24,637 bases of DNA from a virus, in UHGV virus genome UHGV-0173695; one strand, given 5' to 3'. Position 1 is the first letter of the stretch. Each line of letters opens with the position of its first letter. Shown piece by piece: positions 6,415 to 17,992 of this stretch. A program made the translations under genes and the position numbers. Under the pieces are notes generated by a model. It saw nothing but the letters and a program-made list of their open reading frames with translations. It was not told where the DNA came from and ran no database searches.

Positions 6415-7215
6415 TTAACCGCGCTTCGCCTTCTGCGACGCGGTGGTTTTTCGTGTTGCAGGCTTCCGCGTTGTCTTTTTACTTTTGCTGCTTTCGTCCT
6501 GCGTCTGCGGTGTGCTGGCGTCTTCTGGTTCGGCTGCGGAATCGGCTTTTTTCAGGGCGCGGGAAAGGGTTGCAATCTCGCGTTTCACACCTGCGTTCGG
6601 GTTCAGGTGCATTGCTTCGCGCATCAGCTTCAGTGATGAGGCCATGCTGTCCGCATCGGTCAGGCCACGACGGGCAAAGGCACACGCCTTGCATAATTTG
6701 GCGCGCACTTCGTCCGGCATGTCCTGGTCGGTGACAATCTCCCGGAGGGTATCCAGTGGTTCGATAAAGGCGGATAAATCCGCGTCGGCATCCGTCCCGG
6801 CCTGCGTCAGTACCGGGTTGCAGATTTCTTCGGTCAGTACCGTGGCAGCAGTACGGCCAAAGTTATCCGGCATAATGAGGTTGTGACGGACCACATACGC
6901 ACCAATACGCAGCGCCAGCGGAAGATCGCCGCAGTCAATCGCCCACACCATCAGCGTGGCAATCACTTCATCCTGCTGCCCGCCGTCAGCCTCCAGCGTT
7001 CCCTCAATCCAGCCGGAAAAGTCCGGCAACAACTCTTTTTTGATGGCGGCTTTCGCGCTTCTGGCCTGTACGCCCTTAAGCCGGGCCTGTGCCAGACGCA
7101 GACGATACAGCACCTCTTCATGCGCGGTACGCGCGGCGTGGTCCACGCCTTCATTCGCCCGGCCTGCGCGCTGTGCCATCACGTTCTGCCAGTGTTGCTG
7201 TGCAGGAGTAATCAT
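6415..7215 (-). CDS. M: Terminase small (endonuclease) subunit M
   Basis: 266 aa; position after N; Lys-rich C-terminal tail; GGAGAG Shine-Dalgarno upstream. Confidence 0.85.
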   Translation of the reverse strand: MITPAQQHWQNVMAQRAGRANEGVDHAARTAHEEVLYRLRLAQARLKGVQARSAKAAIKKELLPDFSGWIEGTLEADGGQQDEVIATLMVWAIDCGDLPLALRIGAYVVRHNLIMPDNFGRTAATVLTEEICNPVLTQAGTDADADLSAFIEPLDTLREIVTDQDMPDEVRAKLCKACAFARRGLTDADSMASSLKLMREAMHLNPNAGVKREIATLSRALKKADSAAEPEDASTPQTQDESSKSKKTTRKPATRKTTASQKAKRG

Positions 7216-9327: not shown

Positions 9328-11079
9328 ATGATTCAGGACGCTTTTGTGCGCCAGCGTGCGCGGCAACTTTACTGGCAGGGTTATCCGCCCGCAGAAATAT
9401 CACGTCTGATGGGAATAAACCCGAACACGATTTATGCGTGGAAAAAACGTGACCAGTGGGATGAAACGCCACCCGTGCAGCGTGTCACGCAGTCCATCGA
9501 TGCGCGCCTCATCCAGCTTACTGAAAAACAGAATAAAACAGGCGGTGACTTTAAGGAAATAGACCTGCTGACCCGGCAGCTTAAAAAACTGCATGATGGC
9601 CAGCCGGATGCGACGGTCACAGGAAAGAAAGGCCGGGCGAAAAAACTCAAAAATCATTTCACGCCGGAACAGATTGCCGCACTGCGGGAAAAAATCATCA
9701 GCAGGCTGGAGTGGCATCAGCGGGGCTGGTTTGACTCCCTGACCCTTTGCAGGGAAGCCGGGATACGTAACAGGATGATCCTGAAATCCCGACAGATTGG
9801 GGCGACCTGGTATTTTGCACAGGAAGCGCTGCTGATGGCGCTGCGTGACGATGTGGCGCAACCTTACCAGCGTAACCAGATTTTTTTGTCTGCGTCGCGT
9901 CGTCAGGCGTTCCAGTTTAAAAGCATTATTCAGAAGGCCGCGGCTGAAGTTGATGTGGAGCTGAAAGGGGGCGATAAAATCATCCTCTCCAACGGCGCAG
10001 AGCTGCATTTTCTCGGCACTTCTGCTGCGTCGGCACAGTCCTATACGGGCAATTTTTATTTTGATGAATTTTTCTGGGTCAGTCGCTTTGCTGAACTGCG
10101 CAAGGTGGCTGGCGCTATGGCAACCCTCAGCGGACTGCGGCGCACCTACTTCTCCACGCCATCCACCGAAACGCACGAGGCATACGCCTACTGGAACGGC
10201 GACCGCTGGAACGAGAAAAAGGCCTCGCATAAACGCCAGCGTTTTTCTGTGGACTGGAAAACGCTGCATAACGGGCTTATCTGCCCTGACCGGACGTGGC
10301 GGCAAATTGTCACGCTGGAAGATGTGGTTAATCACGGCTGGAAACACACCGATATTGACGAAATCCGTGATGAAAACACCGAAGACGAGTTCCTCAATCT
10401 CTATATGTGTGAGTTTGTTCGCGAAGGGGAATCGGCATTTAACCTGAATATCCTGATTGGCTGCGGTGTTGACGGATACGACGACTGGAAAGACTGGAAA
10501 CCTTTTGCTCCCCGCCCGATGGGGAATCGTCCGGTATGGATTGGGTATGACGCAAACGGCAGCAGTGGCAACGGCGACAGCGGCGCTGTGTCCGTGGTGG
10601 TTCCTCCGGCTGTTCCTGGTGGCCGTTTTCGAACGGTGGAGACGCGACGCGTTCAGGGGCTGGAGTTTGAAGAACAGGCCAGAGTCATTGAAGAGTTCAC
10701 GTATCGCTACAACGTGGAACACATCGGCATTGATGTGACGGGCGGGAACGGGGAGGCTGTTTATCAGATAGTGAAACGGTTTTTCCCTGCTGCTATTCCG
10801 TACACCTTCACGCTGTCATCAAAACGGTCGCTGGTACTGAAAATGCTGCAAATAATGCGTGCCGGGCGGTGGGAATACGATCGCGCCGAACGCGAGCTGG
10901 TCGCGGCCTTTAACGCCGTGCGTAAGGTGAAAACACCGGGCGGCTTTATCACTTACGAAACGGACCGCGCGAGGGGGATCAGCCACGGCGACCTTGCGTG
11001 GGCAACCATGCTTGCTGTCATTAACGAACCGATTGGCGGCGAAGGAGAAAACGAGCGTTTCACGGTTATGGAGTTCTGA
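9328..11079 (+). CDS. P: Terminase large (ATPase) subunit P
   Basis: 583 aa; begins MIQDAFVRQRARQLYWQGYPPAEISRLMG with an N-terminal HTH as in P2 gpP; stop overlaps the Q start (TGATG). Confidence 0.95.
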   Translation: MIQDAFVRQRARQLYWQGYPPAEISRLMGINPNTIYAWKKRDQWDETPPVQRVTQSIDARLIQLTEKQNKTGGDFKEIDLLTRQLKKLHDGQPDATVTGKKGRAKKLKNHFTPEQIAALREKIISRLEWHQRGWFDSLTLCREAGIRNRMILKSRQIGATWYFAQEALLMALRDDVAQPYQRNQIFLSASRRQAFQFKSIIQKAAAEVDVELKGGDKIILSNGAELHFLGTSAASAQSYTGNFYFDEFFWVSRFAELRKVAGAMATLSGLRRTYFSTPSTETHEAYAYWNGDRWNEKKASHKRQRFSVDWKTLHNGLICPDRTWRQIVTLEDVVNHGWKHTDIDEIRDENTEDEFLNLYMCEFVREGESAFNLNILIGCGVDGYDDWKDWKPFAPRPMGNRPVWIGYDANGSSGNGDSGAVSVVVPPAVPGGRFRTVETRRVQGLEFEEQARVIEEFTYRYNVEHIGIDVTGGNGEAVYQIVKRFFPAAIPYTFTLSSKRSLVLKMLQIMRAGRWEYDRAERELVAAFNAVRKVKTPGGFITYETDRARGISHGDLAWATMLAVINEPIGGEGENERFTVMEF

Positions 11080-12125
11080 TGAGCAGAAAAAATAAAAAAG
11101 TGCGCATGAGTTCACGCATTGATCTCGCTGATGCGCTCAGGAAAGAATCGTCGCTCAGTGCATTCACATTTGATGGTCCTTATCGCCTGACCGGGCATGA
11201 TTTGCTGGACAATATGTACTGTGCTGATAACGGGCGGTGGTATGAAACCCCGGTGGACTGGTACGGTCTGGCAAGAGCTGCCCGGCAAACGTCCTGGCAT
11301 CAGTCTGCGCTTTACTTTAAGCGCAATGTATTGCTCGGTTGCTATATTCCGCACCCGCTGCTTTCCCGGCAGGATTTCTCGGCGCTGGCGCTGGACTGGT
11401 TTGTGTTCGGTAACGCATTCCTTGAGCTTCGAAGCAATATGCTCGGCGAACCGCTTAAATTACGGCACGCCCTGGCGAAATACATGCGACGCGGAAGCGA
11501 TCTTGAATCATGGTGGTATGTGCAGGATGGCAAGGACGCGTTTCAGTTTCGCCCTGGCAAAGTGTGCCACCTGATGAATCCGGATATTAACCAGGAAATC
11601 TACGGCATGCCGGAATATCTCGGCGCATTACTCTCGGCCAGCCTGTCTCATTCGGCGGACATGTTCAGAAAACTGTATTACGACAACGGATCCCACGCCG
11701 GGTGCATCATCTACATCGGTGCAGCGCAGGTAAACCGCGAAAGCATGGACTCCCTGAAAGAAACGTTACAGGGTGCGCGTGGTGGTGGTGCATTTAAAAA
11801 CGTGCTCATTCATGCGCCCAACGGTGGCAAAGAAGGTGTGCAAATTTTGCCGTTCCAGCAGATCACAGCAAAGGATGAGTTCATGAATGTTAAGGCGGCA
11901 TCCCGTGATGATGTGCTGGCTGCGCACCGCGTTCCGCCGCAACTGATGGGGGCGATGCCGGGTGAAAAAAGTGCGTTTGGTGATGTGGAGAAGGCCGCGC
12001 GGGTTTACGCAATTAACGAGCTGATGCCCGTCATGGAGGCCATGAAGCACATCAATGACTGGCTTGGCGAAGAGGTGATCCGCTTTAACCCTTACGCACT
12101 GTTAGATACCCAGCCCACATCCTGA
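11079..12125 (+). CDS. Q: Portal protein Q
   Basis: 348 aa, size as P2 gpQ; immediately follows P; followed by a hairpin and the non-coding cos-proximal region. Confidence 0.9.
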   Translation: MSRKNKKVRMSSRIDLADALRKESSLSAFTFDGPYRLTGHDLLDNMYCADNGRWYETPVDWYGLARAARQTSWHQSALYFKRNVLLGCYIPHPLLSRQDFSALALDWFVFGNAFLELRSNMLGEPLKLRHALAKYMRRGSDLESWWYVQDGKDAFQFRPGKVCHLMNPDINQEIYGMPEYLGALLSASLSHSADMFRKLYYDNGSHAGCIIYIGAAQVNRESMDSLKETLQGARGGGAFKNVLIHAPNGGKEGVQILPFQQITAKDEFMNVKAASRDDVLAAHRVPPQLMGAMPGEKSAFGDVEKAARVYAINELMPVMEAMKHINDWLGEEVIRFNPYALLDTQPTS

Positions 12126-12152
12126 CGCGCTTCGCTTGTCTGCTGCTTCGCC

Positions 12153-12175
12153 GGGGCATAAAAAATTTATGCCCC
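12153..12175 (+). terminator. Hairpin downstream of Q (GGGGCATAAA-aaa-TTTATGCCCC); weak terminator candidate
   Basis: Perfect 10-bp inverted repeat 28 bp after the Q stop; no clear T-tract follows, so its function as an intrinsic terminator is uncertain. Confidence 0.35.
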
Positions 12176-12549
12176 GACTCTCCAGCTCCTGTATCAATCA
12201 GATAATTTCACGACGCCTTCCAGTTTATCGCCACCATCGACGGTCAGACTCTTACGCAATCCTACCGCGTTGACTGTATGTTCTCGCCGCCTCAGTGCGA
12301 TTTTGACGGCCTTACCTTTCCCCCCATCAAATCAAAAGCCCTCACATCTTTTTCACGCTCAGCGTGAGAAATATGGCCATTCTGTTGTGTCGCTGCGACA
12401 TCGCTCAGGGAATGCTATTTACCCCCTGAAACGCGGGCTGTTCCCCCGTCACCTGCGCGCAGAAAAAACGCGTTTTTTTGTGCACGCACGGATCCTTGAC
12501 GGATCCAGCCGCCACGCGGGCCGGAAGGGCAAAAAGTCGTTCAAAAAAA

Positions 12550-12576
12550 TTGTGCAAGTTTGTGCACTATTGTGCA
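12550..12576. repeat. Three direct repeats of TTGTGCA phased exactly 10 bp apart
   Basis: aTTGTGCAagtTTGTGCActaTTGTGCAg read directly from the sequence (copies at 12550, 12560, 12570). Confidence 0.6.
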
Positions 12577-12872
12577 GTTTGAAAATGAGCATATATTTAA
12601 CACGCGCGTTAGCTTGAGTTGACTAAAAATTTCAGTGGATTGGGCGAGGTGAAACTATAAACGCAAAATCCCAGTGACTAGCTAACAACAATCCCAGAGT
12701 GTGTTTGAATCTGGAGGGGTTAATATGAAAGATTGTTTGACAAATTTGATGTTTTCTAAATGCGTTAACCACTATGAGGCGGAGAGTGCATCTCCGCCTT
12801 TGTATGTGCGTCGGGCATGGCACGCTCGTTTCGTTTGTGCGCCCGTTCAGGGTTTCATTCTCTGATATTCAG

Positions 12873-13160
12873 TCAGCGTGGATAAATTAACTTGAATTTG
12901 AGGAAGTTTTGTTTAATCCAGTCTTTAACATTTTCCCTTCCCTGAATACCTGATGGTAAGTGTTCGTGAATCATCCATTCGACAATGAGTTTCTCTTTCA
13001 GGGAGTATGCCTTAAAGGAATTAAGCATATTTAGTACTTCATAACCCTCTTTGCGGCTAAACCGATGGCGGTCAGCAGCGGTTTTCGTGGGATCATCTCC
13101 TGGCAAAGCAGTCCAACTGTAATCGTCATAAAATAAATCGCTTCTTTTAATATCGGTCAT
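12873..13160 (-). CDS. Hypothetical protein, 95 aa, AT-rich; cargo gene at the tin/old position
   Basis: Complete ORF; weak Shine-Dalgarno (AAGGA) upstream; a stem-loop (CCACCTC...GAGGTGG) lies in the 66-bp gap from the upstream gene; no family recognised. Confidence 0.45.
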   Translation of the reverse strand: MTDIKRSDLFYDDYSWTALPGDDPTKTAADRHRFSRKEGYEVLNMLNSFKAYSLKEKLIVEWMIHEHLPSGIQGRENVKDWIKQNFLKFKLIYPR

Positions 13161-13226
13161 TTGATTATCCTTTTCAGAAGAACCACCTCTCCAACTATTG
13201 TTGAGGTGGTGAAAAAGCAGAAATCG

Positions 13227-13505
13227 TTATGCAGCTTTGAGCAGTGCGCTGCTCATTGCATAGTCGTACCCAAGCATGTATGCCTCAAAGGCGTCTTTAT
13301 GTCTGACTGTGCCAGCCTGGCTATATGGAATATTTGCCAGGAAGGAATCATCTTTAGCTTTAGGAATACCGATCATTGCGTGAAGTACACCAAGCTCGTA
13401 TGCGCAGGCAGCGCAGCGGTGGCGGCCTGTCTGTCCCTGGTTATCGGGAAGGTGTGAGTATTGGGGGTTGTATCGGTGGGAGTTTTTACAAATCTTTATA
13501 CCCAT
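13227..13505 (-). CDS. Hypothetical protein, 92 aa; cargo gene at the tin/old position
   Basis: Complete ORF with GAGGT about 9 nt upstream of the ATG; no family recognised; the overlapping plus-strand ORFs look less protein-like. Confidence 0.45.
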   Translation of the reverse strand: MGIKICKNSHRYNPQYSHLPDNQGQTGRHRCAACAYELGVLHAMIGIPKAKDDSFLANIPYSQAGTVRHKDAFEAYMLGYDYAMSSALLKAA

Positions 13506-13611
13506 ATTTGATTTACCTCAATAAAATGAGGTGTTCACCTTTACATGGGCACACGCAGAAAATACGATTCCGGCGAGCTCAAGAGGTAGATGACACCTCG
13601 ATTTCTTTGGC

Positions 13612-13642
13612 GCCCCAATAGTTACCGCTATTGGGGCGTTTT
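13612..13642 (+). terminator. Rho-independent terminator-like hairpin (plus strand)
   Basis: Perfect 10-bp stem GCCCCAATAG / CTATTGGGGC with loop ttaccg, followed by GTTTT. Confidence 0.5.
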
Positions 13643-13784
13643 CCTATGCATGACACACAAACAAAGTGGTCATATCGTGATCGATCCTACAAAATCCCAT
13701 ACAACTGTCAAGGGTATTGATCGTTTTAATCGATAGATAAATCAATATCTATCTGTTTAACAGATCGATTATTAGGGTAAACAT

Positions 13785-13807
13785 GAAAAAACACCCGTGA
13801 AGGGTGT
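13785..13807 (-). terminator. Rho-independent terminator downstream of the parR-like gene (minus strand)
   Basis: Minus-strand hairpin ACACCC-ttca-CGGGTGT followed by a T-run (plus strand AAAAAACACCCGTGAAGGGTGT), 8 bp after the ParR stop. Confidence 0.55.
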
Positions 13808-13814
13808 TTGTAGG

Positions 13815-14129
13815 TTATTCTGGGAAAAACTCCTGAATGTTCCTTTTTAACTGGCTCTTACTGTGACTGTTTTCTGTTGCAGATGTGCCAGTATGCTTGT
13901 TTCGGATGTTATTTCTTGGTGGTATTGCTTCCTCTTCCTGCCATTCAGCCAGCCAGTAAGCAAAGGCGGGATCGCTTTTAATAAGCGCCAGTCCAGCCAG
14001 AAATGCCGCGCGTTGCGCGCGGCTGCGTTCGGAGGCTGGCAGGCTGTCGAGATAATTACACGCTTCTCGTTCACTCTTGACGGCTGCTGGCTTCAGATAG
14101 AAACTTATCCGTCTGGTTGGAGTCGTCAT
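13815..14129 (-). CDS. parR: ParR-like centromere-binding protein (ribbon-helix-helix, type II partition)
   Basis: Internal start MTTPTRRISFYLKP...NYLDSLPASERSRAQRAAFLAGLALIKSDP closely resembles plasmid R1 ParR as I recall it; AGGAG Shine-Dalgarno 7 nt upstream; start 5 bp after the ParM stop. Track ORF 13815..14264 has an N-terminal extension overlapping parM. Confidence 0.75.
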   Translation of the reverse strand: MTTPTRRISFYLKPAAVKSEREACNYLDSLPASERSRAQRAAFLAGLALIKSDPAFAYWLAEWQEEEAIPPRNNIRNKHTGTSATENSHSKSQLKRNIQEFFPE

Positions 14130-14133
14130 TGGT

Positions 14134-15093
14134 TTACTCCTTGTCCATTGCGTACAGCCCATTAACCAGAGCAAACTGTGGCACCCCGTCCGCGATGAAA
14201 GTCGCATTAACTCCGCAGGCTTCGCGGATAGCGGGTGCCACAATCTCCGCCCCGCCACCGACAACCATCACCCGCCCGTAACCCGAAAACCCCGCCAGCG
14301 CGCGGATCACTCGTTGTTTCAGTGTTTCTTCCTTTTCACGAATAACCGCCATCAGGCTGGCGTAATGCGCGTCATTGTGGATGTGCTGGCGCAACCAGGC
14401 TTCATCATGGCGATGTTCGATAATGGTATTGGCGATGTGGTGACTGGTGCGCATACCGTTAGTGGCCATCACCGACAGTACGGCATCGGCCATCAGAGAA
14501 ACGCCTACGTGTGGATCGCAAAACACCTGGCTGATACCTGCCAGTTGCCCCTGAACCTTTGCCACATCCAGCGTGGTTCCGCCCAAATCCACAATCAGCA
14601 GGGATTCAAACGGACTCATGTCAGCCAGTGCCTTAAAGCCAGCCGGAATGGATTCAGGCATAACCCGCACGTTACGGATAGTGAATGCTTCGCCGTTCTG
14701 GTACTCCACCGGGCGCATAACGTTCGCTTTTTTGCGGTTGATGTTGGCCATGTCCGGCTGTGCGTTTGTGTCGAAATATTCGCTCAGTGGCAGGGTGACA
14801 ACCACATCCACTTCCTGTGGTGTGATGCCTGATTTGACCAGCGCGTGATGAATGGCAATGACATTCACATCGCTGTACTGGTATTGCGTGTCGGTCGTCT
14901 GGACAAAGCGATCGCTGACCGGATCAAAACCATAGCGCACGCCATCAAGCATGTAGTTCGCGGGCTGCGTGCCACCGAACGGCGCAGACCATTCCGACTT
15001 GAAGCTGTTTGGGCTGATGGCGTTGCGGCGTTCGCCGTTCTCAGTCCATGCCAGCTTGATGTTGGTGGAGCCGTCATCGATACAAATTTTCAT
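14134..15093 (-). CDS. parM: ParM/StbA-family actin-like ATPase (type II partition motor)
   Basis: 319 aa; N-terminus MKICIDDGSTNIKLAW (R1 ParM begins MLVFIDDGSTNIKLQW as I recall); further matches ISPNSFK, YSDVNVIAIHHAL, DLGGTTLD, VMVVGGGAE. Confidence 0.9.
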   Translation of the reverse strand: MKICIDDGSTNIKLAWTENGERRNAISPNSFKSEWSAPFGGTQPANYMLDGVRYGFDPVSDRFVQTTDTQYQYSDVNVIAIHHALVKSGITPQEVDVVVTLPLSEYFDTNAQPDMANINRKKANVMRPVEYQNGEAFTIRNVRVMPESIPAGFKALADMSPFESLLIVDLGGTTLDVAKVQGQLAGISQVFCDPHVGVSLMADAVLSVMATNGMRTSHHIANTIIEHRHDEAWLRQHIHNDAHYASLMAVIREKEETLKQRVIRALAGFSGYGRVMVVGGGAEIVAPAIREACGVNATFIADGVPQFALVNGLYAMDKE

Positions 15094-15240: not shown

Positions 15241-17992
15241 CACTGGTCAGGCCACCCCGCAGCAGGTCTGCTTTGCGGCGGGCGCGTTCAGTGGTTTCAC
15301 TGATTCTCTGTGCGTGCTCTGCGTCGCGGATGGCGCGCAGCATGTCAGAAAGCACGGTAACGGGTGTTTTCATGGTGTTCTGGTCTTGCTGAAGTGTGGA
15401 TGCCAGGCGTGCGGCGGCTTCGGGGTCTGATGTCCCCAGCTGTTCCAGATAGCTGGCGACCGGGTTATGGCGGATCTCCGTACTGCTTACGCCGTGGTTA
15501 CGGCTCAGGCGCTGCCAGAGCTGCGTGATCCGGCTGTCCGGTCGGGTATCCGGTTTGCGTACAATTTCAAATCCCTGCGGTGCAATGTTGCTGCCGTCAA
15601 CGTACAGACTGCCGCCCCGTAACAGGTGCTGCATCTGCTGTTCACCGATATGCAGGCCGAGAGATTCAGCAGACTCCCGCCATTCTTTAGCGAGTAGTTC
15701 GTGGTTATCAGGCAAAGGCCGCTGCTGTTTGCGGCTCTGTGTCCAGCTCTGCATTTCATCACGGCTGTTTTTTGCCTGTTTGTCACGAAGCGAACGCATC
15801 AGCGCCCGGCGTTCGTGCCGTTTCAGTGAGCGCATCCATTCGTTCACTTCAACGCCGTCAGGGAGCTGCGGCCACGGTGCTGGCCGTTCTTCCGGCTGTT
15901 CTGTCCCGTTGTTGTCCGTTTCCTGTACACGGGGACAGTTATTGCCACGAGTCCAAGGGGCGGCAGGGCCGCCCTGAAGGTCAAAACCATTTTCGTGGGC
16001 GTTGTCTTCTGGTTCTGGTTTACGTCTTACCAACTTCCAGTTATCCGGATGCGTGCACACACGGGAGGATTCCCCGATGAGTGGTGACCAGATCCCGTAA
16101 ATCTGTACGCTCTGTTCGCCGTAATCGTTCAGCTCATCTGCGAGGTCGTAGGCGGTGCGAATCAGGTAGTCCTTGCGTGGAACAAGCACGCCACCCTGTT
16201 TTTCAATGTAGGTGGCAAAACACCCGGCATCGGCGGCAGCGAGTACCGCATCCATTGCATCATCTTTCAGCCGTTGCGGGCCTTCCGGATTGCGTGCCAT
16301 CTGGCTGGCAAGGCGGCGCAGTTCACGCCACACCTGACGGGAGGGGATGCCAAAGAACTGGAACTGACGGACCCGGTGAAGGCGCGCCCAGCCGATGGCG
16401 CGCTCCACGCTCTCGGCCATTGATTTTCCGGTTTCGTGGTCAACGCGTGGCTTGCCCGTTTTCGGGTCGATGCCATCCACGGCGCGGCTGTCCAGGTTCT
16501 TTCCGATGTAGGTAGCGATGTAGCTGGTTGGTGTGCCTTTTGAGCCGTCGACATACTCCGCCTTAAAACGCGGAGTTATGTCATCGCCCAGCTCGTGGCG
16601 GTCCTCCTGAATGGCAATATCGCAGACGTGGGACACGATGGTTTCAATCTCGTCCGGATGTGCAAAGACCATCATATGCCAGTGCACAGTGCCGTCATGG
16701 TGAGGCTCCACCGTGCGGATGCCATACCAGCGCAGGCCGTCGCGGTTCAGTTTTTTGCGGACCGCCGCAAAAAACGTGTTAACCAGGTAATCGCTGGAGT
16801 CGCGCATGGTGGCCCCGTTCCATTTGGGGTTCGGATGACCGTTCTCCGTTGTTGCGTGGTATTTTGACGGGCAGGTGACGGTCAGAAACACCGCTCTGTC
16901 GCCACGGGCTTCGGCCAGAAGTTCCAGTCCCTTCATGGTGGCCATCATTTCTGCCTTACGGTGAACCGGGTTACTTACTCCCGCGTAATACACCGTCTCG
17001 AGATCAATCGTGAACCCGTCTTCATTTTCCAGCGTGAAACTTTTCAGGAAATCGCGTGTTTTCTCGCGCTGTGCGCGAAACTCGCTTAACGCGTCCTGGC
17101 TCAGATAGGGCGATGTTTTTCTGGAAACCAGACAGGCGGCGCGGAGTTGTTCTTCCCGCCACTCGCAACGTAACAGCCACAGTTTGCGTTTCCACCATTC
17201 CGCACAGGTCAGGCGAAGGATTGCGCCCGGCAGCAGCTCCGTGTCTGGTTCGTTCCTCCGGTCTTTGTCTGTTGTCAGTGCGTCATAATGTGGAGGCATG
17301 GCGTGCAGGTGTAACGCCATGCGGGCCAGCATCTGATACGCCTTCAGCGTTACATCCATGGTCAGCTCGCCATCGGTCGCGCCAAAGCCATCGCAGAGTT
17401 TTTCGAAGGTGCTGCTGAACATCGCCGCCGTCATGGTGGCCAGCGTCTGTATCTGGTGTTTGTTGAGCTGCGGCAGGTAAAGCAAATCGTCCAGGCGTTC
17501 GCGTCCGGCAAGGGAGCGATAACCCGGTGTCAGCCAGCGGTGATCGGTGCGGTCCAGACGTTCGAATATTTTGCGCAGGGTTCCGCGTGCATAGCGTTCC
17601 GCCTGCCAGCTCTTTTTGCCTTTCCGGCGATCGGCTTCCTGTTTTTTGCGCAGGAAGGAGAGGTGGCGAATAAGCGGATCGCGCAGATAGGACGGCAGCA
17701 GGCGCAGCGAGGCCATGGCTTCATCCACTGCGCCGCGTGCCTGTTTTCTGGCGTCTCCTGCCAGTGTGATGGTTTTGTCCTGTTTTTCCTGTGCGTCCAG
17801 GCTTTTATTAATCAGGTTGCCCAGCGGCGTGGCGGAGAACGCCGCATCAGCCATTTCCTTGCGGCGCTCGTTCTCTGCCCGGTAGGCATCCAGCCAGGAG
17901 GAAAGCGCGGATTCAGGAGCGGGGATCCCCGTTCCTTCACGCCCCACTGCGTGGCGCGGTTGTTGCCAGTCCCTGATGTACTCTGCCGTCAT
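15170..17992 (-). CDS. A: Replication initiation protein A (rolling-circle endonuclease), P2 gpA family
   Basis: 940 aa; contains HWHMMVFAH and TSYIATYIGKNLD (HUH-type and catalytic-Tyr motifs of gpA-like initiators). Longer than the roughly 761 aa recalled for P2 gpA. Confidence 0.9.
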   Translation of the reverse strand: MTAEYIRDWQQPRHAVGREGTGIPAPESALSSWLDAYRAENERRKEMADAAFSATPLGNLINKSLDAQEKQDKTITLAGDARKQARGAVDEAMASLRLLPSYLRDPLIRHLSFLRKKQEADRRKGKKSWQAERYARGTLRKIFERLDRTDHRWLTPGYRSLAGRERLDDLLYLPQLNKHQIQTLATMTAAMFSSTFEKLCDGFGATDGELTMDVTLKAYQMLARMALHLHAMPPHYDALTTDKDRRNEPDTELLPGAILRLTCAEWWKRKLWLLRCEWREEQLRAACLVSRKTSPYLSQDALSEFRAQREKTRDFLKSFTLENEDGFTIDLETVYYAGVSNPVHRKAEMMATMKGLELLAEARGDRAVFLTVTCPSKYHATTENGHPNPKWNGATMRDSSDYLVNTFFAAVRKKLNRDGLRWYGIRTVEPHHDGTVHWHMMVFAHPDEIETIVSHVCDIAIQEDRHELGDDITPRFKAEYVDGSKGTPTSYIATYIGKNLDSRAVDGIDPKTGKPRVDHETGKSMAESVERAIGWARLHRVRQFQFFGIPSRQVWRELRRLASQMARNPEGPQRLKDDAMDAVLAAADAGCFATYIEKQGGVLVPRKDYLIRTAYDLADELNDYGEQSVQIYGIWSPLIGESSRVCTHPDNWKLVRRKPEPEDNAHENGFDLQGGPAAPWTRGNNCPRVQETDNNGTEQPEERPAPWPQLPDGVEVNEWMRSLKRHERRALMRSLRDKQAKNSRDEMQSWTQSRKQQRPLPDNHELLAKEWRESAESLGLHIGEQQMQHLLRGGSLYVDGSNIAPQGFEIVRKPDTRPDSRITQLWQRLSRNHGVSSTEIRHNPVASYLEQLGTSDPEAAARLASTLQQDQNTMKTPVTVLSDMLRAIRDAEHAQRISETTERARRKADLLRGGLTSGNKKQTETGFTNPVNEQKTRRDI

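Follow-up and report, generated by a model that had tools for sequence, protein, structure and literature searches.

The DNA analysed here, hereafter the window, is a stretch of 24,637 nucleotides from the virus genome UHGV-0173695. Pfam hits on its open reading frames reveal a head and packaging module of the P2 family, comprising M, N, O, P and Q, together with A, in the same gene order as in P2; the capsid gene N and the scaffold gene O belong to this head module, and parM and the replication gene A are found further on. By BLAST, the region groups with the P88-like phages (Xuanwuvirus, Peduoviridae), and judged by these similarities the window is a P88-like (Xuanwuvirus) prophage of the P2 family. 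The features that set the scene for the packaging site are the following.

6415-7215, minus strand: small terminase subunit, homologue of gpM (Pfam Phage_term_smal, 5.7e-37; 36% identical to P2 gpM)
9328-11079, plus strand: large terminase subunit, homologue of gpP (Pfam Terminase_5, Terminase_6N and Terminase_6C; 44% identical to P2 gpP)
11079-12125, plus strand: portal protein, homologue of gpQ (Pfam Phage_portal), the synteny anchor for cos, which in P2 and 186 is found ~190 bp past the portal stop
12420-12576, no strand assigned: predicted cos region as a whole, the block common to distant relatives and a satellite-like island, delimited by the footprint of homology
12577-14100, no strand assigned: variable cargo region of lower GC beside the predicted cos, given as context and lying outside it; from 12577 onwards the sequence differs in every lineage

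The gpP homologue combines an N-terminal HTH with an ATPase and a nuclease domain. A headful (pac) site, which would go with a pac-type terminase and terminally redundant, circularly permuted genomes, was considered in brief; by Pfam, the terminase of the window falls in the P2 gpP/gpM family, the studied members of which are cos phages. Directly past the Q stop lies a perfect hairpin with an 11-bp stem (CGGGGCATAAA/TTTATGCCCCG, 12152-12176), in the position that the terminators tQ and tW occupy in P2 and 186; it was not called by the terminator scan because it has no T-run on either strand. An Rfam scan placed a gyrA RNA on this hairpin at 22 bits, far below the gathering score of 45 bits, which is taken as chance, and returned no match apart from this one. 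The stretch between Q and the predicted cos (12126-12419) is a second variable spot, measuring ~310 bp in the window, ~170 bp in P2 and 890-940 bp in some relatives; the P2-like E. coli prophage L010 (6000-6870) carries an extra minus-strand gene here, and insertions between cosL and Q are mentioned in PMC5694545. A plus-strand open reading frame of 115 aa with a TTG start (12270-12617) overlaps the predicted cos; it has no Pfam hit and is treated as probably spurious.

On the far side, GC in the cargo region beyond 12577 is 0.35-0.45, and the unrelated sequence together with the drop in GC beyond 12576 fits the cos-adjacent cargo hotspot of P2-like phages described in PMC9122126. Between the predicted cos and gene A, this region encodes a full-length ParM, an actin-like plasmid segregation ATPase (14134-15093, minus strand), and in Citrobacter phage Shae_phiSM parM and parP are annotated at the matching position. 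This arrangement suggests that these phages may be able to persist as plasmids. The repeats described below were considered as a parC centromere for the nearby parM, a reading that was rejected because they also occur in an island that lacks parM and in L010, which has no annotated parM between cos and gene A.

In order to delimit the site, I relied on its conservation in relatives of increasing distance. P88 and a dozen coliphages match the window at 93-96%, with this homology ending at 12576-12584, and Shae_phiSM is 92% identical over 12100-12720 (BLAST). Novemvirus phiT5282H has only 12432-12576 in common with the window, and L010 carries a visibly diverged yet collinear version of the predicted cos. 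An 18-mer anchor collected 61 non-redundant variants from IMG/VR, every one of them downstream of a portal gene, and more than 100 related loci have the site behind Q. None of the variants retains homology past 12576, the point after which conservation collapses in a 60-variant alignment. The same block is found in 1142 of the 5426 complete E. coli genomes, so that it would represent a common packaging signal.

The cos blocks are kept in 35 distant variants, the portal proteins of which are ~69-78% identical where measured. Conserved among these are 12432-12461, TTTTTTGTGCA at 12474-12484, GATCC at 12491-12495, GGGC.GGAAGGGCA at 12517-12531 and TCAAAAAAATTGTGCAAnTTTGTGCACTATTGTGCA at 12541-12576. 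The invariance of 12441-12458 is partly an artefact, because the 18-mer used for collecting the variants forces it; the flanks, phiT5282H, L010 and the satellite-like island were found independently of this anchor. On the Q side, conservation of the ~290 bp of 12126-12419 is limited to close P88-like relatives. The parts of the block, with the predicted functions that the comparisons below suggest, are these.

12435-12453, minus strand: cosN homologue, predicted 19-nt 5' cohesive end 5'-GGTGACGGGGGAACAGCCC-3', placed by gapless alignment to the P2, 186 and P4 ends
12454-12472, no strand assigned: 19-nt spacer between cosN and R1, beginning with the conserved GC palindrome TGCGCGCA (12454-12461), the remainder variable
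12463-12478, no strand assigned: perfect 16-bp palindrome, lineage-specific, spanning the variable part of the spacer and the T-run of R1
12473-12484, plus strand: R1, a T-run followed by TTGTGCA, the counterpart of TTTTAATGCA in the 55-bp core of P2, 186 and P4
12485-12542, no strand assigned: spacer between R1 and R2 of ~62 nt, including the ACGGATCC repeat, its length as in P2, 186 and P4
12543-12576, plus strand: A7 tract and R2-R4, three copies of TTGTGCA 10 bp apart and thus phased at roughly one helical turn, the proposed terminase recognition (cosB-like) array

The spacer between cosN and R1 is 19 nt in P2, 186, P4, the window, phiT5282H, L010 and the copy in the island (L009). Among the 35 distant variants, the A7 tract with R2-R4 is the most conserved part of the predicted cos (90-100%), followed by all homology stopping directly after R4, and R1 is 80-100% conserved. 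Positions 12463-12472 are unconserved, and in the spacer between R1 and R2 only the first GATCC (12491-12495) and the block at 12517-12531 are kept. This latter spacer is deleted entirely in the variant shared by L063 and L121. L121 (5400-8905), like L063, is a hybrid P2-like prophage with a P88-like gene A/parM arm and a very different head and terminase module, its portal protein being 30% identical; in its cos, R1 is fused to R3 and the equivalent of 12487-12566 is missing, and an ogr-like zinc-finger open reading frame lies between Q and cos.

According to Ziermann & Calendar (1990), as cited in PMC5694545 and PMC9594776, P2-family phages have a 55-bp cos core in common. Its layout of a GC-rich flank, a 19-nt cosN, a 19-nt spacer and TTTT(A/T)(A/T)TGCA is found in the window as well, but with the GCGCGC flank on the opposite side of cosN. 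Beyond this core, I derived a distal array of three TGCA repeats from the GenBank records of P2, 186 and P4, which start and finish at the cohesive ends (annotated as such in the P2 and 186 records); no description of its geometry was found in the searched literature, which did not cover Ziermann & Calendar 1990. In these three genomes, RTGCA repeats lie at offsets of 23/95/105/117-118 from cosN, counted to the start of the 7-mer. The motif TTGTGCA has eight copies in the window, four of which, all on the plus strand, begin at 12478 (R1), 12550, 12560 and 12570 (R2-R4), which in the window, the island, phiT5282H and L010 alike corresponds to offsets of 25/97/107/117; the distal three thus lie at 97/107/117 against 95/105/117-118. 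This clustering at the repeat offsets of P2, 186 and P4, which the first-pass annotation of the window had missed, is far above chance. When both strands of the window were scanned for the geometry, only the anchors 12454-12456 on the plus strand fitted, and none of 200 shuffled sequences did.

Sequence alignments gave the same picture. A MAFFT alignment of seven sequences has 35 invariant columns, including the TTTT and TGCA of R1, TGCAA in R2 and TGCAC in R3, and aligns the cosN homologue gaplessly with the mapped cohesive ends of P2, 186 and P4. With a profile of P88-type sites (nhmmer), the P4 junction was the best of 903 sequences, 900 of them shuffled, though with a weak score of 11.4 bits (E = 0.049); the match runs collinearly from cosN to R3 (profile positions 18-151) in the expected orientation, and pairs 12436-12452 with the P4 end without gaps. 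The same profile scored 186 at 5.7 bits, on the fourth rank, and did not report P2.

The 19-mer by itself is a poor guide. The cosN homologue is identical to the P2 end at 13 of 19 positions, which on its own is background, as the window contains fifteen 19-mers with 13/19 or more to the P2 or 186 end. The best match to the 186 end in the window, GGCGTGGCGGAGAACGCCG with 15/19 (17826-17844, plus strand), lies inside gene A and is almost certainly due to chance, so that the 19-mer alone is misleading; similarity to the P2/186 end was therefore discarded as a stand-alone test for cos, being non-discriminating. In the island (L009) the equivalent 19-mer is the best P2-end match (14/19) in the 14-kb stretch examined. 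The end sequence of P2, 186 and P4, GGCG(A/T)GGCGGGGAAAGCA(C/T), is not present: the predicted cos of the window lacks this 19-nt end, because no match to the P2 end within 3 mismatches exists in the entire 24.6 kb and the 13/19 of the homologue is background.

The cut positions at 12435-12453, placed by analogy with P2, are uncertain by about 2 nt in either direction (the alternative register being 12437-12455), and uncertain too is the overhang length of 19 nt, assumed from P2, because R1-R3 are displaced outwards by 2 nt relative to P2, and because the cohesive end of phages SEN4/SEN5 has GGGGGAAC in common with it at a 2-nt offset. Two scans of IMG/VR, with an 18-mer and a 25-mer anchor, gave no common terminus: over more than 120 loci, the distances from the anchor to the end of the entry were scattered, with values of 22, 64, 107... 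in one direction and of 0, 39, 41, 56... in the opposite one. For the most part, the entries are prophage cut-outs, and a retrieved locus may end before the true end of its contig.

The weakest full-length match to the block in the complete E. coli genomes is located in a non-phage island of ~12.7 kb between hpt and gcd (L009:3500-14153 and L134:1-3200; E. coli JML285, NZ_AP024114.1, ~3986.5-3999.2 kb), and the same island occupies the same locus in another strain (L185). It encodes two recombinases, an 889-aa toprim primase, an ogr/delta zinc finger protein, an Icd-like protein and HTH regulators, and contains no portal, terminase or tail genes. Its copy of 12425-12577 is 153 bp long and 79% identical with every block present, and this variant of the site occurs in ~56 of the 5426 complete genomes. 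Strain P13-6 (NZ_CP080223.1) gave matches to both versions of the site, that of the window and that of the island, and may contain the two elements together. As P2 and P4 are described in the literature as having only cos in common, a packaging signal is what one would naturally expect a gene-poor island to share with a phage; the 79% copy in an island without packaging genes is what a cos shared with a helper-dependent satellite would look like. Presumably, the island carries the site so that a P88-type terminase packages it.

The gene content of this island departs from the classical P4 layout, with a P2-family capsid gene instead of psu/sid, no psu/sid-type genes being annotated in it. The capsid homologue, of 423 aa and with an N-terminal extension of ~120 aa, is 34-35% identical to both the gpN of the window and P2 gpN, and, by its gene content, the island may be a satellite producing capsid protein of its own. 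A 236-aa protein of unassigned function and a MazEF pair are further present.

The first-pass annotation had searched for cos in 12126-12520, just downstream of Q, and had proposed a divergent relative of the P2/186 site. Both the place and the relationship are borne out: the block 12420-12576 follows the portal gene, and an alignment with the cos regions of P2 and 186, suggested there as a check and extended here to P4, recovers a collinear layout against the mapped sites (MAFFT; nhmmer for P4). Its interval contains cosN and R1 but misses the A tract and the three TTGTGCA copies (12543-12576), as the predicted cos, at 12420-12576, runs 56 bp beyond 12520. It was right that the exact P2 end is absent. 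The G-rich motif that it had likened to part of the P2/186 end corresponds to GGTGACGGGGGAACAGCCC (12435-12453, minus strand), which holds as the positional homologue of the P2 end, although its 13/19 identity is not significant alone. The other motifs that it singled out do exist: the 16-bp palindrome AAAAAACGCGTTTTTT at 12463-12478, the direct repeat ACGGATCC at 12488-12495 and 12499-12506, and TCACGC-tca-GCGTGA at 12353-12367, which extends to an 87% inverted repeat over 12345-12375. As hallmarks of cos, however, they do not hold, being absent or unconserved outside close P88-like relatives. AAAAAACGCGTTTTTT is the only perfect palindrome of 14 or 16 bp in the 24.6-kb window, and 32% of shuffled sequences hold at least one of 16 bp; two-copy 8-mers such as the ACGGATCC repeat are unremarkable by chance. 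In other lineages the 16-bp palindrome is replaced by ACATTTGCTTCGTTTTTT or similar, the 35 distant variants show essentially no conservation of its left arm (12463-12472) or of the second ACGGATCC copy, and the TCACGC palindrome is located outside the block common to distant phages and the satellite. On this comparative evidence, the two palindromes and the second ACGGATCC copy are lineage-specific and mostly incidental.

Taken together, conservation, layout and the shared island argue that 12420-12576 is very probably the cos (cohesive-end packaging) site of this P88-like, P2-family prophage, and as such an ordinary element of its kind that differs in sequence from the cos of P2, 186 and P4. 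Other readings of the same DNA have been considered. The cut could lie elsewhere in the block, for example in the GC-rich segment 12505-12531, which on the minus strand contains GCGTGGCGG, resembling the start of the 186 end GGCGTGGCGG, and CCCGCGTGGCGGCTGGATCC, like the first 10 nt of that end. Among phage-collection records, only LR595891.1 (P88_4B11) begins within the block, exactly at the 12531/12532 boundary and 80 bp off the predicted cut, and the P2-like records of the same series start exactly at the P2 left cohesive end. However, the authors of LR595891.1 chose its first nucleotide relative to reference genomes and not from mapped ends, which is why this start is not taken as a mapped end here. 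Moreover, neither the satellite (CCAGTACTGG) nor the variants L015, L016, L037 and L062 preserve GTGGCGG, 12505-12531 is deleted outright in L063/L121, and in the layout of P2, 186 and P4 it sits in the spacer, which in P2 is AT-rich and unrelated. I therefore regard a cut at such a place as unlikely.

Alternatively, only the proximal ~55 bp could be cos, and the A tract with TTGTGCA (12543-12576) a signal for transcription of the neighbouring genes, acting as a terminator or else as an operator/promoter. The terminator scan did flag a 5-bp hairpin that R2-R3 form on the minus strand with T7 after it, and the equivalent repeats of P2 are close upstream of the old/tin transcript starts. However, this hairpin is weak, the region contains two terminator-like sites against a shuffle mean of 1.0, and a scan of the region found no sigma-70-like promoter. 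The repeats are also invariant, while each lineage has cargo of its own content and orientation beyond them; the satellite keeps R2-R4 as well, and the repeats of P4, 186 and P2 lie at matching offsets despite unrelated neighbours. Transduction was far better with a P2 cosmid that had longer cos flanks (PMC9594776), which likewise speaks against restricting cos to its proximal part, and a purely transcriptional role appears quite improbable. Even less credit can be given to the idea, implied in the first-pass annotation, that a novel cos owes its function to the palindromes and the ACGGATCC repeat: these motifs exist and are clustered in or beside the block, but they are not conserved in phiT5282H, L010, the satellite or the 35 distant variants, and TCACGC...GCGTGA lies beyond the limits of the shared block, so that I consider this explanation highly improbable.

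If 12420-12576 is indeed the cos site, packaging could proceed as in P2 and lambda. After replication, a terminase consisting of gpM as small and gpP as large subunit would bind the repeat array, the binding of gpM to the repeats being presumed purely from these analogies; the A7 and T7 tracts would perhaps bend the DNA, and the gpP nuclease would thereby be positioned on cosN. It would nick both strands ~19 nt apart at ~12435-12453 (+/- 2 nt), leaving 5' cohesive ends with GGTGACGGGGGAACAGCCC on the Q-side arm, after which the DNA would be pumped via the gpQ portal into the capsid, and the ends would re-anneal after injection.

The P88 paper contains nothing on cos, the predicted end GGTGACGGGGGAACAGCCC occurs in no paper of the searched literature, and nothing relevant was found under Xuanwuvirus either. 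The P88-type cos sequence itself, the fixed distal TGCA geometry across P2, 186, P4 and the P88 group with its changed repeat word, and the satellite lineage that uses a P88-type cos all appear to be new, each being undescribed in the searched literature, which did not cover Ziermann & Calendar 1990. As far as the sequences tell, they suggest a rule for P2-family terminases, in which the geometry stays constant and the repeat word differs. Such a rule may explain which helpers mobilise which satellites, and would aid the design of P2-type transducing particles. A more speculative extension, which I put forward tentatively and think could well be wrong, is that the P88-type site represents a second packaging-specificity group in the enterobacterial P2 family, in which a diverged gpM/gpP reads TTGTGCA instead of ATGCA and cuts a changed cosN, with its own dedicated satellite lineage in the hpt-gcd island; in that case, P88-like and P2/186-like phages would not package each other's DNA or satellites. 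Knowing the place of cos fixes the true genome ends of P88-like phages and marks the inner edge of the cos-adjacent hotspot for cargo and defence genes. The P88-type cos does not overturn the current understanding, and its interest is modest.

With regard to known systems, the resemblance to lambda is one of outline and by analogy only. Its cos consists of cosN and of cosB, with R sites and an IHF bend, and has a 12-nt end; the window shares with it a nicking site with an adjacent repeat array for the small terminase, possibly with bent DNA in between. There is no sequence relationship, the terminase is of another family and the end is of a different length, so that the cos of the window is no member of the lambda family. 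Divergent cohesive ends within the P2 family are known from HP1 and phiCTX. Variant ends are also on record for the Ralstonia phage phiRSA1 (GGTGAGGCGGGGTCCAAC, starting GGTGAGG...) and for the Salmonella phages SEN4/SEN5 (GGCGAGGCGGGGGAACGAG); like that of the window, these are G-rich, start with GG(T/C)GA and contain GGGGGAAC-like runs, but they differ in sequence and host, and were compared by end sequence only. At that level, phiRSA1 and SEN4/SEN5 show that the cohesive end drifts within the P2 family while the core layout persists, and since divergent ends are thus already documented (phiRSA1, SEN4/SEN5, HP1 and phiCTX), the P88-type end would be one more such case.

The closest counterparts are P2, 186 and P4. 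As in these, the predicted site lies beyond the portal gene (in the phages) and has a G-rich 19-nt cosN with the same strand orientation towards Q, followed by a 19-nt spacer, a T-run with TGCA, a spacer of ~62 nt and three phased TGCA repeats whose offsets agree to within 2 nt; likewise, a variable cargo hotspot is found directly beyond it, and the site is shared with a satellite. However, the cohesive-end word differs from theirs at 6 of 19 positions (GGTGACGGGGGAACAGCCC in the window, GGCGAGGCGGGGAAAGCAC in P2), the repeat word is TTGTGCA instead of ATGCA, and an A7 tract precedes R2. The GCGCGC palindrome, on the Q side of cosN in P2, 186 and P4, is on the far side from Q in the window, and cosN is ~310 bp away from the Q stop as opposed to ~170 bp. 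These differences are accompanied by terminase subunits that are only 36% (M) and 44% (P) identical to those of P2.
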